A stretch of 64,000 bases of DNA from Gemmatimonadota bacterium (GCA_039586795.1 JBDHJS010000001.1:138328-202327), one strand, 5' to 3'; positions 27,001 through 33,000 are shown, numbered from the stretch's first letter. A program made the numbers.

Positions 27001-30000
27001 GCTGGTGGCGGAGGGCGATCCTGATTCGCCGGCCTGCCTGGATTGTCACGACAATCACGCCACGCTTGGCCAGTTGTCGCCGGCGTCACCGACTTACCCG
27101 CGCAACGTTCCGGACCTGTGTGCCCGGTGCCACCGGGAAGGTGAGCCTGGAGCGCGTCGCCTGACCCATGATAGTCCGCTGAACATCATCAACAAATACG
27201 AGATGAGCATCCACGGTAAGGGGCTACTCGAGAGCGGCTTGGTGGTGACGGCGACCTGCTCAAGTTGCCACGGCCCGCATCATGTGCTACCGGCCGAAGA
27301 CCCGGCGTCGTTAGTGCACAGAGACAATGTTACCGGCACCTGCGGTACCTGTCACCACGGCATCGAGGAGATCTATCAGGAGAGCGTGCACTGGGTAGGC
27401 AGGGAGGAATTCGACCCGTCGGAGCACGAACACGACCTGCCGACTTGCGAGAACTGCCATACATCGCACACGATCAGCCGCACGGACCGCACCGATTTCC
27501 GCCTATCGATGATGGATCAGTGCGGCCGCTGCCACACGGAAGAGTCGGAGACGTTCTTCGACACGTTTCATGGCAAGGTATCCCGCCTGGGAGACGCGGG
27601 CGCCGCCAAGTGTTACGACTGCCACGGTACGCACAATATCCTGCCGACCACCGAGCCCGGGTCCACCTTGAGCCGGCGGAACATCATCGAGACGTGCGCT
27701 CAGTGTCACCCCGGCGCCAATCGCAAGTTCACGGGCTACCTGACGCACGCCACCCACCACGACGCCGAGCGGTATCCCTTCCTGTTTTGGGCGTTCTGGG
27801 GGATGACGGCGCTGCTGGTCGGCACTCTGTCGTTTGCCACACTCCACACGCTCGCCTGGCTATTCCGCATGTGGCGGTCACCGGGCGAGTGGGTTCGTCA
27901 CAAGCCGGTAGAAGGTGAGGCGCTGTACCGACGTTTCACGACGTTCGAGCGCTCACTTCACCTGACGATGTTGATCAGCTTCTTCGTGCTGGCGATCACC
28001 GGCATGATCTTGAAGTTCTCGTACACCGGGTGGGCACAATCGCTGGCGAGCTTCGTCGGTGGATTCGCAACTACGGGAGTACTCCACCGTATGGGCGCGA
28101 TCGTGCTGATCACCGTCTTTATGATTCACTTGATCGACGTCTTCATGCGAAAGCAGGCATCGAAGCAGAACTGGCGCGAGTTCATCTTCTCCGACAGCTC
28201 GCTCATGTTCAACAGAAACGACCTGCGGGAGTTTATCGGTTCGATTAAGTGGTTTCTCGGCTGGGGATCGCGGCCCAAGTATGGACGCTTTACCTACTGG
28301 GAGAAATTCGACTACTTCGCAGTCTTCTGGGGAATGTTCATCATCGGGTCGACCGGATTGCTGCTCTGGTTCCCCGAGCTGTTCACGGTGATTCTGCCAG
28401 GGTGGACCGTGAATGTCGCAACCATCTTGCACAGTGACGAAGCGCTGCTGGCCGTGGCGTTCATCTTTACCATCCACTTCTTCAACACGCACTTCCGACC
28501 GGACAAGTTCCCGATGGATCCCGTCATATTCACCGGACGTGTCCCTGTCGAAGAGTTGAAGCACGATAAACCGCGCGAGTACGAGAAGCTGGTTGAAGCG
28601 GGTAAGCTGGAGGAGTACCTGGTTCACCCATATCCGAAAAAGATGCAGCGACTGTTTCGCGTCTTCGGCTTCTCCGCCCTTGCCGTGGGTCTGATCGTGA
28701 TATTCTTGATACTCTACTCGATGCTCAGCGTCTACATGTAGGCACGGAACCGTCTACATGTAGGCACTGAACGTTGACGTCAGTGTCCAGCCCGCGCCCA
28801 CGCTACAACTGCCTGTCCCAGAGATATGCCGCCATCGTTGGGCGGCACCTGCCGGTGGGTGAAGACCTCGAAGCCGGCGTCGTCCAGACCGTCGACCATC
28901 AGGCGCGTCAGCAGCGAACTCTGGAAACAGCCTCCGCTCAGCATCACGCGATTGAGCTTGTGCTTGTCGCGGATCAGCTTGCATGTGTCGAGGGTGAAGG
29001 ATGCCACGGTGTTGTGGAAGGCGTTGCTGATCCACTTCACGGGTCGTCCAGCTCGATACTCACACCAGAGGGCGCGCAACGTGGCGGCGGGGTCGATGAC
29101 CCAGCCGTCACCTTCGCGGATGATGTCGTAGGGGAAGTAATCATCCCCCTGCGGGTCGGCGATGGCTTCCAATTCGACGGCTGGCTGGCCTTCGTACTCC
29201 GCCTCGCGGCGCAAATCCAGCAGCGCGGCCGCGGCGTCGAAGAGCCGACCGCATGACGAGGTGAGCGGCATGTTGATCTCCGCGTCAAACTGCCGCCTCA
29301 AGATGATGCGCTCGCCGATGGGGATCGAATCGATGAAGGGCCTGAATTCGGTTTCCGGGATGCCACGACAGAGGCTCCAGATGTAACCCGCCGCCATCCG
29401 GTACGGCTTCTTGATCGCAGCCTCACCGCCGAGCATCGGAGCGTACTTCAAATGCGCCACACGCTCGAAGCCCTTCCAATCCGCGACCAGCAGTTCACCG
29501 CCCCACACAGCGCCGTCCGTACCGTAGCCTGTTCCGTCGAACGCGATCCCAATAACAGGCTCGCTGATTCCGTGCTCGGCCATCACGCTGACGATATGCG
29601 CGTGATGGTGCTGCACGGCGACCCGTAGCGCCTGGCCAGCCGGGTAGTCGTAGGCAACGCGCGTCGACAAGTAGTCGGGGTGCGAGTCGTGGGCGATGAC
29701 CTGCGGCTCGACTCTGAACAGATTTCGATACGTCTCGAGCGCCGAATGAAAGTGTTCAAGTGTCTCGAGGTTTTCGAGGTCGCCGATGTGCTGGCTTAGA
29801 AAGGCCTTGGAGCCTTTGACGAGACAGAACGTGTTCTTCTGTTGAGCGCCTACGGCAAGAACATCCTGCGACGACTCAAAGGGCAGGTCGATTGGCGCAG
29901 GTGCATAGCCACGCGCTCGACGAATCGGTACGACGGCATCGCCCAGGCTTCGCACCACGGAGTCATCGTAGCGGGCGTGAATGTCCCGGTCGTGGAGCAA

Positions 30001-33000
30001 GAACTCATCGGCGATTTCGCCGAGTCGCTCAATCGCCTCCTGGTTGCCGATGGCAATCGGTTCCTCGCTAAGGTTGCCGCTCGTCATCACCACGGGGCCA
30101 TCCATCGCCCGCATCAGCAGATGGTGCAGCGGTGTATAAGGAAGCATGACGCCCAGGGTATCCAGGCCGTAAGCGACGTCCTCGGCAATTCCTGTATCGC
30201 GTCGTCGCTTAATCAGCACGATGGGGCGCTCGCGGCTTTCCAGCGCCTGCAACTCGGCGGGACGGACCTTGCACAGACGTTTCGCCCACGCGGCATCGGG
30301 CACCATAAGGGCGAATGGCTTTCCAAATCGTCGCTTACGATTCCGAAGCTCGGCGACCGCCTCCGCGTTCATTGCGTCGCAGGCCAACTGGTAGCCGCCC
30401 AATCCCTTGATCGCAACGATTTGGCCGTTCTTCAGGCAATCGACGCAAGCCTCGATGACGTCCTTCGACGCCGCTTCGGTGTCAGTACCTCCGCTAAGCC
30501 AGATCTTCGGCCCGCAGACCGGGCACGCCACGGGCTGCGCGTGGAATCTTCGGTCCTGCGGATCCTCGTATTCGCGACGGCAATCCTCGCACATAACGAA
30601 CCCACGCATTGTGGTTCGTCTGCGATCGTAGGGGAGTTTCTCGATGATCGTGAAGCGAGGACCGCAGTGCGTGCAGTTGGTGAACGGATAGCGATAGCGC
30701 CGTTCGGACACATCTAGCGTTTCGGCAAGGCAATCGTCGCAGGTCGCGCTGTCCGGTGGAATCGACTGCCAGCCCTCGTCCTCGGTGCTCTCGACGATCT
30801 CGAAGGTGGCATAGCCGTGAAATGTCTTGTTCTCGCTGAGGATTTCGTCAATCCGACACAGAGGAGGAGCGTCCGCGCGAAGTCCTTCTAGAAACGCCCG
30901 CAGCGCGCCTTCATCGCCGTCCAACTCGATTTCCACCTGGGCATTCGTGTTTCGGACCCAGCCGGTCAGGCCGTGACGTTTGGCCAGCTGGTAGATGAAG
31001 GGGCGGAAGCCAACGCCCTGGACGATCCCGCGGACGCGGACACTCAGTCCTTGCACGCTAGGTGCTCCGTCTACTCTCCTCGATTCTCTCCGTCAGCCAG
31101 TTCTGCCACTCGTCCAAGCCAGCTCCAGAAAACGATGAGGTTGAGAATACTCTCAGGTCAGGATTAACCGATCGAGCGTTCTCGATCGCCGCATCCGCGG
31201 AGAACTGCAGGTGCGGAATTAGATCCGTCTTGGTCAAGATGAAGGCGCTGGCCCTCTTGAACGCCGCGGGATACTTGAGAGGCTTGTCCTCGCCTTCGGT
31301 TACGCTCATCAACACAACCTTCACCGATTCGCCAAGGTCGAACGAAGATGGGCAGACCAGATTGCCCACATTCTCTATGAAGAGAAGATCCAGCCGGTCA
31401 CGATCGATGGCCTCGAGGGATCGCGTAACCTGTTCAGCGTTCAAGTGGCAGCCGCCTCCCGTCTCGATTGCTTCCACAGGCACCCCGTGACGTATCAATC
31501 GCTCGGCATCATTGCGCGTCTGGACGTCACCCGCCACGACCGCCAGCCGCAGGTGGTCTTTAAGCCCATCGATGGTCTTTTCGAGCAATGTCGTCTTTCC
31601 CGACCCCGGCGACGAAATCATGTTGATGCAGAAGATGCCCCGAGCCGTAAGGTCACCACGGATGTGCTCGGCCAGCTGATCGTTGGCACTAAGGACCTTC
31701 TGTTTGACGTCCACGCGCTCGGCGCTCATCGCGTCTCACTCCACTTCCAGGTAGCTGACCTGCAGGGTTTGGCCCCCCGACACACCTTGCGCCACAGCCT
31801 TGCACTCCGGGCACTCGAACGGAGCGCGCAGAACCTCGAAACGCAGGCCGCACTCCAGACACGCTGCCAGGCCCGGTTCGCGCTCGATCTCCAGATGCAC
31901 ATCGCCAAAGCGATCCTTGAGCACAACGTCCAGGCAGAACCTGAGCGATTCCACCTCGACACCAGAGAAGACGCCGACCACAACGCCCAACGCCGTCATG
32001 CGGGTCTCGGACGCCTTGGCCAGCTCCCCCTCGCAGATCGAGCCGATTTCCAGGGCCAGCGACATCTCGTGCACGCGATCACCTTAGTAAGATTGGCCCG
32101 CAAGGGTCAGGCCGCTGAGCGGCGGAAACCCAGGTGCTGTAAACCCTTGCTGTTAAAAGAAATATGGATTCTCGTTCGCGGCCACGACAACCCCGGTGCG
32201 GCGGGGCGGGACATTCCGCGACGCGGCTAGCCCCGCAGGAACCACTGGAAGCCGATCATCGCCAGTAGCGAGGCGGTGACCGCGGTGGCGACGGTACGAC
32301 TGGGGGCGTCCGCCAGGGCTTCTGGGATCAGCTCGGCGAAGCTCATCCAGATCATGGCGCCGGCGGCGAATCCGAGCCCCACCGGCAGGACGGTGGCAAA
32401 CGCAGCGACGAAAAGGAATGCGGGCACCGCCAACAGAGGCTGTGGAAGACTCGAGAAGATGCTCCAGGCGGCGGCCCGTCGCACCGGTTCGCCGCGTGGT
32501 ACGAGCACGAGGCTGATGGCGAGTCCTTCGGGAATATTGTGCACCGCGATGGCCGTCGTGATGAAGACGCCGAGGGCCTCTCCACCGCCGAAGGATACGC
32601 CGACGCCTACGCCTTCGGTGAACGAGTGCACGGTCATCACGCCGATGATGAGCAGAGCCCGGCCGGCATCGACGCCTCGCAGCGTGCCAAGCTGCAGCTC
32701 GCCGTGGCCGTGGAGCCAACGCGTGCTCGAGGCGATGAATGCCACGCCCAACAGCGCACCAGCAATCACCCTCATCAGACCCGCATTCAAACCCTCGTAG
32801 ATGAGGCCGAAGCTGGCAGCGATCATCAGGCCGGCGGCTACGGAGTTAGCCATTGCCAGCCACGTCCGGGTCATGCGCGGCAAGAAGAGGAATGGCACGG
32901 CCCCGAGCCCCGTGGCGAGCGCCGTTACGACGGCGAAGATGAAGACAGTTAGGGGTGTGATTGGCATGACTTGGATTCACCTGCGATCCGGGTCACTGTC

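Follow-up and report, generated by a model that had tools for sequence, protein, structure and literature searches.

In a family of Gemmatimonadota, the genes hypA, hypB and hypF persist after the [NiFe]-hydrogenase and hypCDE have been lost, and we put the probability at roughly 0.55 that the three genes are kept for non-hydrogenase jobs, HypA and HypB in nickel handling and HypF through its Kae1-like site. The window analysed here is a stretch of 64,000 nucleotides (GCA_039586795.1, JBDHJS010000001.1:138328-202327) from an assembly that is 97.8% complete in 107 contigs (G000). Genomes with hypF but without hypD are called orphans throughout. The features of the locus, in window coordinates, are as follows.

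25916..28741, plus strand: left flank, fusion of a 19-heme cytochrome c with a cytochrome b domain (19 CxxCH; Pfam)
28729..28779, no strand: deletion junction; the cytochrome stop (28741) and the hypF stop (28780) are separated by 38 bases
28780..31056, minus strand: hypF, 758 aa, all four domains (TIGR00143, 838.7 bits, cut-off 466.1)
30796..31044, minus strand: HypF acylphosphatase (ACP) domain, residues 5-87, R18 and N36 intact
30514..30741, minus strand: HypF zinc fingers, Cys 106-181
29917..30438, minus strand: HypF YrdC-like domain, residues 207-380
30328-30336, minus strand: KxR motif of the YrdC-like domain (K241, R243), intact
30073-30081, minus strand: SxN motif of the YrdC-like domain (S326, N328), intact
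28813..29874, minus strand: HypF Kae1-like domain, residues 395-748
29596-29610 (H483, H487) and 28834-28836 (D741), minus strand: Kae1 ligands, D507 being a further ligand
31058..31729, minus strand: hypB, 223 aa, short-type metallo-GTPase (TIGR00073, 274.7 bits, cut-off 121.2)
31736..32074, minus strand: hypA, 112 aa, nickel/zinc chaperone (Pfam PF01155, E 3.5e-22; alignment with 22 relatives)
32227..32967, minus strand: right flank, ZIP-family metal transporter (PF02535), 152 bases upstream of hypA

All three hyp reading frames in G000 are open and full length, which together with the profile matches bears out an earlier note that had called them intact, although its feature end at 32065 cuts 9 bases off hypA; the true start is the GTG at 32074, encoding the conserved (M)HE. 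The alignments show the MHE and both CxxC motifs of HypA and the GSGKT, CH, ENVGNLVCP and TKxD motifs of HypB to be intact. HypF carries five Pfam domains, with ACP, two zinc fingers, YrdC and Kae1 all present in a protein above the curated TIGR00143 cut-off, and every catalytic motif is canonical (K241, R243, S326, N328, H483, H487 and D741 are retained). Across 214 universal sites it shows 4 conservative and 0 non-conservative changes, and hypF omega on the G000 branch is 0.04. The left-flank cytochrome gene is convergent with hypF and syntenic in relatives, and the ZIP gene, on the hypA strand, is found at the locus in many relatives and absent in several. An arsR gene and an ArsR-regulated heavy-metal P1B ATPase lie 3-6 kb from the hyp genes. 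A promoter and terminator scan gave no signal above chance level, and the matching pieces of one RNA run, among those listed, fell outside the hyp genes only.

The rest of the maturation system is gone. Profile searches of the G000 genome found no HypD, no HypE above cut-off and no PF00374 large subunit, the sole PF00346 match being NuoCD, and tblastn with the hydrogenase, HypC and HypD proteins of a congener (G029) gave no match; its HypE matched only a ThiL-like protein. A search for the L1/L2 motif pair of hydrogenases was likewise empty in G000, as was one for HypE-like acceptor or [FeFe]-hydrogenase motifs, which gave no credible candidate. These results uphold the reported absence of a NiFe hydrogenase, hypD and hypE from this genome. 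In the other nine orphans, too, PF00374 had no match and PF00346 matched NuoCD only, so that a hidden group 4 hydrogenase is ruled out. HypD was found in 0/10 orphans and HypE above cut-off in 0/10, and HypC was found neither in G000 (tblastn and motif) nor at the loci compared. Measured against the [NiFe]-hydrogenase maturation system (HypABCDEF), the large-subunit client, the HypC-HypD scaffold and the HypE acceptor are all absent.

This loss has a simple geometry. The hydrogenase and hypCDE genes form one block that the family has lost by clean deletion on at least five occasions, whereas hypA-hypB-hypF is a separate, oppositely oriented unit that is retained after the deletion. At the position of the G000 junction, the hydrogenase and hypCDE genes of G029 take up about 8 kb; the deletion left no remnants of them at this locus. 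A 17-base direct repeat (28729-28745 and 28751-28767) overlaps the junction, which is bridged by a 193-base contig (28707-28899, 0 mismatches) of a public run, X1, possibly the source sample. The flanking genes are joined in 10/10 orphans (9 as sequence, G006 from coordinates), twice the five such loci previously given. As the note had counted, 27 of the 31 family genomes carry hypF and 17 carry hypD, which leaves ten orphans among the 27; hypE is in the same 17 genomes as hypD, and four genomes have no hyp gene. Hydrogenase large subunits occur in 14/31 rather than 12 genomes, G005 and G016 having group 3/4-type enzymes in addition. Trees of hypF and nuoD resolve five separate losses of hydrogenase and hypCDE. 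Of the three genomes once described as an intermediate state with hypDE and no hydrogenase, G010 is doubtful: the genome is 79% complete, its hypD and hypE stand at background omega (0.05 and 0.04), and it probably has a hydrogenase that was not assembled. That the missing genes might more generally be an artefact of assembly or binning is hardly credible. Most of the genomes are incomplete metagenome assemblies, and G046 shows, as G010 probably does, that such genes can be missed; against this stand the joined flanks, the bridged junction, the single 4.8-Mb contig of G004 and the 97-98% completeness of G000 and G013. Moreover, with their YrdC sites broken, the older orphans would be unable to mature a hydrogenase even if they had one.

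Selection on hypF has weakened about threefold in the older orphan clade, yet the gene is far from neutral. On all post-loss branches of the six-genome orphan clade its omega is 0.157, against 0.055 elsewhere, and the nuoD control shows no significant change (0.047 against 0.040). Omega = 1 is rejected under two trees and two codon-frequency models (2dL 842-879), and where about 140 nonsense changes are expected (dS 2.2; 2.8% of mutations), 0 are seen. Every HypF domain is relaxed, by 2.4-3.9-fold; in the Kae1 domain omega is 0.109 against 0.042, and at its universal sites 0.059 against 0.002. The claim of an intact HypF under unchanged selection is therefore wrong, all the more as the catalytic residues of its first two steps are eroding. 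The parity reported between orphan and hypD-positive pairs was misleading because the closest hypD-positive pair, G014/G015 (dS 0.10, omega 0.17), itself has no hydrogenase. Pairs with a hydrogenase in one or both members (G015/G016, G002/G003, G022/G023, G005/G007) give 0.04-0.07, and five orphan pairs 0.14-0.19. Several short internal branches of the free-ratio fit give meaningless omegas, and pairwise dS between G000 and G030 is saturated. Omega of hypA and hypB in orphans rises twofold, equal to the neighbouring genes (ZIP 2.1, tetraheme cytochrome 2.3), and therefore indicates nothing specific.

The relaxation is very uneven across HypF. In the six-genome orphan clade together with P0008, omega reaches 0.46 (0.23-0.80) for the YrdC tetrad (KxR/SxN) and 0.21 for ACP R18/N36, and is 0 for the four Kae1 ligands (<0.08) and for the eight zinc-finger Cys (<0.04), all of which are unchanged across full-length orphans. 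N36 is changed in 6/8 old orphans. The YrdC tetrad is broken or deleted in all eight, and KxR is broken in 7/7 old full-length orphan genomes and 4/4 metagenome proteins from the same clades; among 80 metagenome loci it is intact in 70/70 fully covered other HypFs. Independent lineages have lost the same sites (13/18, against 65/214 expected; p 1.6e-4). By contrast, H483, H487, D507 and D741 are unchanged in 15 degenerate HypFs wherever covered (D741 is uncovered in G006), and the Kae1 nucleotide-site glycines G508, G510, G512, G519, G708, G742 and G743 never change. Erosion is graded, from 0-4 changes in recent orphans up to 31 in P0010, and some of it falls on conserved Kae1 residues near the site: S601A, G603A, R604H and G709S in G012, H484D and G709A in P0010, and N740D, Q712K/R and G603S/E in the truncated proteins described below. 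The HypFs of G000 and G009 are canonical.

Truncation has gone furthest in G027 and three relatives, in which the zinc fingers and YrdC domain were excised in frame to leave a 472-aa ACP+Kae1 protein, here called mini-HypF. The form is represented by four 90% clusters from three source collections with a shared deletion boundary, the relatives being 72-81% identical to the G027 protein; a contig scan for further mini-HypF loci returned only one full-length HypF. From a 127-row alignment it was modelled at pLDDT 91.7, the break falling within a linker, against only 41 from an 8-row alignment; this confidence comes from the canonical HypF rows and is no proof of function. The statement that orphan HypF is full length with both zinc fingers thus applies to the full-length orphans and fails for G027, which also lacks hypA and hypB. 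The family therefore offers a natural deletion series: the intact orphan, the full-length form with an eroded active site, and the mini-protein.

Together, these patterns indicate that what is retained in old orphans is the Kae1 site and, because steps one and two of HypF are losing their catalytic residues, not the known carbamoyl-phosphate activation and carbamoyl transfer. Both purifying selection after the loss and a hydrogenase-independent role, as proposed in the earlier note, are supported for the older lineages, through their omegas and the in-frame mini-HypF clade, but not for G000. There the loss would be recent because HypF is fully canonical; nothing beyond a recent deletion is shown, and this copy bears no sign of a shift.

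For HypA and HypB, a nickel pathway other than the hydrogenase offers a plausible reason to persist. Their motifs (MHE and two CxxC in HypA; P-loop, CH, ENVGNLVCP and the guanine-specificity motif in HypB) are intact in 9/9 orphans having both genes, with HypB above the NCBIfam cut-off and HypA above that of Pfam and below that of TIGR00100. A complete nickel-pincer pathway, with larB, larC and larE above cut-off, was found in 5/5 genomes tested. In the five genomes searched for other nickel clients (G000, G004, G008, G013 and G014), LarA occurred only in G000. CODH/prismane, urease and the NiCoT transporter were found in 0/5, the last being absent also from the hydrogenase-positive G017, and no acireductone dioxygenase was above cut-off; the Ni-SOD search gave 0/5, with a control that matched nowhere. 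A nickel ureohydrolase was rejected as client, the copies common to all five being agmatinase and arginase-like, and the extra copies not shared. Among well-assembled family genomes larC is present in 13/14, as opposed to 9/74 in the sister family, where the hyp genes are lost together. LarC and the nickel-pincer pathway thus appear to be the best candidate client. The larC gene is unlinked to hypAB, and LarC does not require HypAB everywhere: G027 and G018 have larC but no hypA above cut-off. No paper tying HypAB to LarC turned up in a literature search that lacked most subscription journals.

On the reading that we prefer, the three proteins would now work as follows. HypA and HypB would continue as nickel chaperones after hydrogenase loss, most likely handing nickel to LarC for insertion into the nickel-pincer cofactor. 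HypF would have stopped activating carbamoyl phosphate, in keeping with the erosion or deletion of the Asn in its ACP domain, of the tetrad in YrdC and of positions near the HypE entry, with strict selection left only on the Kae1-like metal and nucleotide site. Most likely this site would do as Kae1-type sites do in other proteins, binding an acyl- or carbamoyl-adenylate that a different enzyme supplies and transferring or hydrolysing it, with an acceptor other than HypE. Such a second job would probably predate the loss, which unmasks it. The stronger version, in which HypF acts as a stand-alone Kae1-type adenylate-handling enzyme, independent of HypE, carbamoyl phosphate activation and HypAB, and HypAB in parallel fill the place of a missing nickel donor in nickel-pincer cofactor synthesis, is less likely and we hold it only tentatively.

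The main rival is slow decay under a folding constraint, unlikely in our estimate and still to be taken seriously. The genes would be useless leftovers, still expressed at the end of a cytochrome/ZIP operon and selected only against misfolding; active-site residues would be the earliest to change and structural metal sites the latest, and deletion would be piecewise, with G027 a late stage. Relaxation of all domains, graded erosion that reaches the Kae1 domain, the loss of hypA, hypB and half of hypF in G027 and the genomes without hyp genes all fit such a course, as does the block deletion, which shows that loss of the pathway is tolerated; the Kae1 metal ligands may be kept as fold stabilisers. 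Yet no nonsense change has been fixed, though a stop or deletion would end the folding cost and, with no gene after hypF in its unit, a stop would not be polar. Nor does decay sit easily with the removal of hypCDE and hydrogenase without remnants at the same locus, with the survival of mini-HypF through 20-28% sequence divergence, or with HypB residues for GTPase and metal binding that are catalytic, not structural. A metal-buffering unit for Zn, Ni or Fe, formed with the ZIP importer and the ArsR-regulated ATPase and using HypF merely to bind metal, is improbable. It would account for invariance of the metal ligands alone and for the neighbouring transporter genes, but the nucleotide-site glycines are equally fixed, the mini-HypF clade discarded both zinc fingers and hypAB, ZIP is missing from the locus in several relatives, and a protein of 758 aa is an expensive way to buffer three ions.

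The reading first offered, that HypF keeps its full carbamoyl transfer but serves a new acceptor connected with dissimilatory sulfate reduction, is more improbable still. In its favour, G000 has a full sat-qmo-dsrMKJOP-dsrAB cluster, the HypFs of G000 and G009 are canonical, and all five family losses lie in dsr-positive lineages. The reported dsrA in 9/10 orphans was also confirmed. The count of dsrA in 2/17 hypD-positive genomes, however, rises to dsr genes in 4/17 with G022 (partial dsrA and dsrB) and G030 (dsrB at a contig end), so that four dsr-positive genomes keep the hydrogenase; a sister-family orphan, G066, keeps hypF without dsr and without larC. With only five events behind it, the tie to dsrAB is weaker than claimed and no mechanism connects it; Fisher tests on genome counts were excluded from the evidence because kin are not independent. 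The dsr genes do not adjoin the hyp genes, a search of G000 gave no plausible HypE-like acceptor motif, and the carbamoyl-adenylate residues are broken or deleted in all eight older orphans, seven of them with dsrA, which largely refutes this reading for old orphans.

Our preferred reading, retention for nickel delivery and for the Kae1 site, has partial parallels. G000 HypF shares the four-domain layout and every motif of the canonical carbamoyl:HypE ligase (PDB 3VTH/3VTI, 3TSP, 4G9I; TIGR00143; E 3e-241 to 3VTH), which is described as having three active sites in series (PMC6022934, in part). In orphans its only described acceptor, HypE, is absent along with the HypCD scaffold and the hydrogenase, and in older orphans only site 3 survives, sites 1 and 2 being either broken or deleted. 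In Cupriavidus necator HypF1, the domain retained is reportedly the C-terminal Kae1-like one. This natural one-domain HypF has been proposed to need externally made carbamoyl adenylate (PMC9100943, in part). HypF1 is encoded within a complete hyp operon and works for hydrogenases via HypE, whereas mini-HypF has no HypE, keeps an eroding acylphosphatase domain and arose by internal deletion within this family. The next-best structural matches after HypF are TsaD/Kae1 (t6A synthase) and the Kae1 domain of TobZ-type O-carbamoyltransferase (E 8e-11, 11-14% identity), which have the same fold and the HxxH...D metal site (for this site and the KxR/SxN motifs, see PMC9654439, in part). The adenylate on which TsaD works comes from a YrdC protein of its own. 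Replacement of TsaD by orphan HypF was rejected, since a separate full tsaD is present in 5/5 genomes and identity is only 11-14%. For HypAB there is precedent in the activation of non-hydrogenase nickel enzymes (PMC11399263, in part): with urease, GdmH and the MefH/DmgH ureohydrolases they likewise work without a hydrogenase client. In those cases hypAB adjoin the client gene without hypF, whereas here the candidate client LarC is unlinked and hypF is present; urease, CODH and a shared nickel ureohydrolase were not found.

The only role described for HypF is that of a hydrogenase maturase, and together with hypD or hypE it is taken as a marker of hydrogen metabolism; a literature search, with most subscription journals and supplements outside its reach, found no account of hypF without hydrogenase or of a moonlighting HypF. 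In these sediment Gemmatimonadota an automatic 'hypF' annotation does not imply hydrogenase maturation. Genomes with nickel-pincer cofactor synthesis but no LarA form an open group of organisms (PMC13524815, in part), and in them HypAB are a testable candidate nickel donor for LarC. HypF has outlived its pathway several times, and evolution marks the one of its three active sites that is still important; the intact, eroded and mini forms therefore bear both on a second job of HypF and on the working of one-domain HypFs such as that of C. necator.

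The hyp genes of the window lie on one strand, with 6 bases between hypA and hypB and 1 base between hypB and hypF:

31736-32074, minus strand, hypA, open and full length
31058-31729, minus strand, hypB, open and full length
28780-31056, minus strand, hypF, open and full length

A ZIP transporter gene and a series of multiheme cytochrome genes lie upstream of hypA on the same strand. At the other end, hypF and a convergent gene for a 19-heme cytochrome c/b stop 38 bases apart. In the congener G029, this cytochrome-hypF gap is filled by about 8 kb, in which a group 1 hydrogenase, its protease and a cytochrome b are followed by hypC-hypD-hypE in the opposite orientation. 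Searches of the window's own genome, G000 (97.8% complete), gave no match for HypD, HypE or the hydrogenase large subunit, nor for a group 4 subunit, and tblastn with the G029 hydrogenase, hypC and hypD proteins gave none either. The junction is bridged with 0 mismatches by a 193-base contig of public run X1, which may be the source sample, and we consider it very improbable that the hydrogenase and hypCDE are absent from the assemblies only. The cytochrome stop at this junction is overlapped by a 17-base direct repeat, whose two copies stand 5 bases apart (28729-28767) and are possibly a scar of the deletion. The runs containing the stretch are sediment metagenomes according to their records, and the relatives carry the Gemmatimonadota label from their sources.

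An ArsR regulator and a P1B heavy-metal ATPase (22878-25521), syntenic in most relatives, lie directly upstream of the 19-heme cytochrome. A same-strand run (33076-40851 and 54556-56598) encodes a tetraheme protein, a four-heme cytochrome c and a protein with ~10 hemes, as well as a 503-aa protein that has no Pfam match and may be an outer-membrane barrel, and two 9-heme proteins. This run and the 19-heme cytochrome c/b beyond the junction may form a porin-cytochrome conduit and are conserved in the family.

Orphan hypA-hypB-hypF, as the earlier note described it, is both real and recurrent. Among 31 family genomes, hypF occurs in 27, hypD and hypE in the same 17, and the large subunit in 14 (not 12, as the note had it). 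The ten genomes with hypF but no hypD, here called orphans, represent five loss events on the hypF and nuoD trees, namely G000, G009, a six-genome clade of genus g4 (G004, G006, G008, G011, G012, G013), G021 and G027. All ten have hypF joined to the cytochrome gene, where the note had counted five such loci. Of the orphans, 9 of 10 carry dsrA, as the note stated, but its figure of 2 in 17 hypD-positive genomes rises to 4 when partial matches count. In the sister family (74 genomes, each at least 88% complete), dsrA was found in none, and hypF, hypD and hydrogenase occur together except in two genomes: G066 (91% complete), which has hypF alone, next to the same ZIP and cytochrome genes, and lacks dsrA, larC and hydrogenase, and G046, with a hydrogenase and no hypD or hypF match. 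Because hypF adjoins hypD in much of the sister family, gene order confounds the contrast between the two families. A dsr-linked carbamoylation by HypF seems to us quite improbable.

The G066 HypF (L276:8276-10690) has an intact YrdC tetrad, but another sequence in place of the conserved HAQP motif that follows the second zinc finger. One sister-family genus carries two hypF copies per genome (G055, contigs C53/C64; G056, C9), one G056 copy with an internal TGA. In G000, a compact sulfate-reduction cluster (locus L277, C73:58000-78000) holds qmoB/C, sat, dsrMKJOP, dsrAB, a DsrD-sized ORF, DsrL-like and DsrN-like genes and a second dsrMK pair. In the single-contig G004 (L278, L279), dsrA and dsrB matches lie ~520 kb apart, with a tRNA-like sequence after dsrA, through either rearrangement or misassembly.

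HypF is described, in the sections consulted, as three sites in series, acylphosphatase, YrdC-like adenylation and Kae1-like transfer (PMC6022934), with site motifs KxR...SxN and HxxH...D (PMC9654439). KxR is broken in all seven old full-length orphan genomes by differing residues (R243 to V, G, D, S, D or P, or K241Q), as well as in four metagenome proteins that fall in the same clades and in the family proteins P0037 and P0068, known without gene context. By comparison, the tetrad is intact in 70/70 fully covered non-orphan HypFs (80 metagenome loci; 8 partly covered; the 2 exceptions are family orphans). N36, the acylphosphatase Asn, has been replaced in 6 of 8 old orphans. Within the g4 orphan clade, the tetrad has a site-class omega of 0.46 and R18/N36 one of 0.21, while it is 0 for both the eight zinc cysteines and H483/H487/D507/D741 (upper bound 0.08 for the latter, with D507 counted as a metal ligand). 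The g4 and g9 lineages have lost the same sites more often than expected by chance (13/18, p 1.6e-4), a shared Q422P among them. The Kae1 domain is relaxed as well, and conserved residues near its site are altered in several copies, which runs against a clean story.

Omega was fitted with a custom Goldman-Yang-type codon model on test branches strictly inside the g4 orphan clade, so that all post-date the loss provided it happened once. For hypF it is 0.157 there versus 0.055 elsewhere (LRT 190) and for the nuoD control 0.047 versus 0.040 (not significant), the background values being lowered by long branches near saturation that the nuoD and cytochrome controls share. Values for hypB (0.106 versus 0.057) and hypA (0.117 versus 0.058) also rise, though not specifically, since neighbouring genes give ratios of 1.1 (19-heme cytochrome), 1.5 (P1B ATPase), 2.1 (ZIP) and 2.3 (tetraheme cytochrome); the hypF ratio of 2.85 is the highest among the genes compared. 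Neutrality of hypF is rejected (2dL 842-879, two trees and two frequency models), and ~140 nonsense changes would be expected over 757 codons in the g4 clade plus HypF sequence P0008 (dS 2.2; 2.8% of mutations make stops), where 0 are present. On the G000 branch, hypF omega is 0.04, the background level. At 214 sites that hardly vary across 14 relatives with a hydrogenase and 51 outgroup HypFs, non-conservative changes number 0 in G000 and G009, 6-14 in old orphans and 26 in HypF sequence P0010. The window thus records a recent loss, from which alone post-loss selection is not demonstrable; the earlier note's headline of retention after the loss applies to the older lineages, on grounds other than it gave, and not so far to G000.

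The earlier note's full-length HypF with both zinc fingers matches the window's protein but not that of G027, where an in-frame deletion has taken out residues 104-388 with the zinc fingers and YrdC, and hypA and hypB are gone apart from a stub of the hypB tail. This mini-HypF is not a one-off, because four 90% clusters (472-474 aa, 72-81% identical to the G027 protein) have exactly the same deletion boundary. HHHAH, D507 and D741 persist in all of them, whereas erosion of the acylphosphatase goes further, with R18 lost in P0137. A structure model of the mini-HypF (pLDDT 91.7) places the break in a linker and matches HypF first and TsaD/Kae1 next. Slow decay under folding constraint, a less likely alternative, would account for the graded erosion of HypF, but not for the absence of stops, the clean removal of the neighbouring hydrogenase-hypCDE block or the lasting mini-HypF.

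Our literature searches, in an incomplete paper collection, found no description of eroded or mini HypF, and the portions seen of PMC12134894, PMC4506123, PMC7695850 and PMC7285500 report no hydrogenase-independent HypF function, although Helicobacter pylori hypF and hydE mutants differ in phenotype (PMC7695850, in part). In Frankia, hyp genes are known to be left over when the synton is lost, with other hydrogenases still present or hypF broken (passages of PMC11879354), and marine Gemmatimonadota with dsrAB and Hya-type hydrogenases have been described in passages that do not treat hyp genes (PMC11316326).

Functional motifs of HypA and HypB are all intact in the nine orphans possessing both genes. 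In five genomes searched for nickel enzymes (G000, G004, G008, G013, G014), no CODH or urease was found, and only G000 has LarA. All of larB, larC and larE are over the cut-off in G000, G004, G013, G017 and G027, and larC occurs in 13 of 14 well-assembled family genomes versus 9 of 74 sister-family genomes. The products of these genes synthesize the nickel-pincer cofactor, and in many organisms the genes occur without LarA (PMC13524815, in part); their presence implies that nickel is still needed once the hydrogenase is gone. With no LarA-type match in four of the five genomes searched for it, a further nickel-pincer enzyme is likely in the family. HypAB are established activators of other nickel enzymes (PMC11399263, in part), and we infer that they feed nickel to LarC; G027 and G018, with larC and no hypA, count against this link, for which our literature search found no paper and a term search of the accessible text of PMC13510736 no mention. 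That the hyp proteins are kept for metal buffering strikes us as improbable.

The G000 lar genes are scattered over three housekeeping loci (larC C36:7240-8412, larB C19:19254-19883, larE C96:22963-23742), and its only LarA-like gene (C102:80647-81867), within a cell-surface polysaccharide region, is flanked by an acyl-carrier-like ORF on one side and an AMP-binding enzyme on the other. G014 and G015 have hypABCDEF with no hydrogenase detected, and a second, unrelated hypA-hypB pair elsewhere (L162:6684-9874; L163:9314-10332), likely acquired horizontally.

Taken together, we favor, at a probability of about 0.55, a reading in which hydrogenase-hypCDE would be a block that can be deleted, HypAB would be retained as nickel chaperones serving another pathway, and HypF would be retained for its Kae1 site. 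A supply of adenylate in trans has also been put forward for C. necator HypF1, a one-domain HypF (PMC9100943, in part); orphan HypF differs in that its Kae1 site would act on such an adenylate without HypE.
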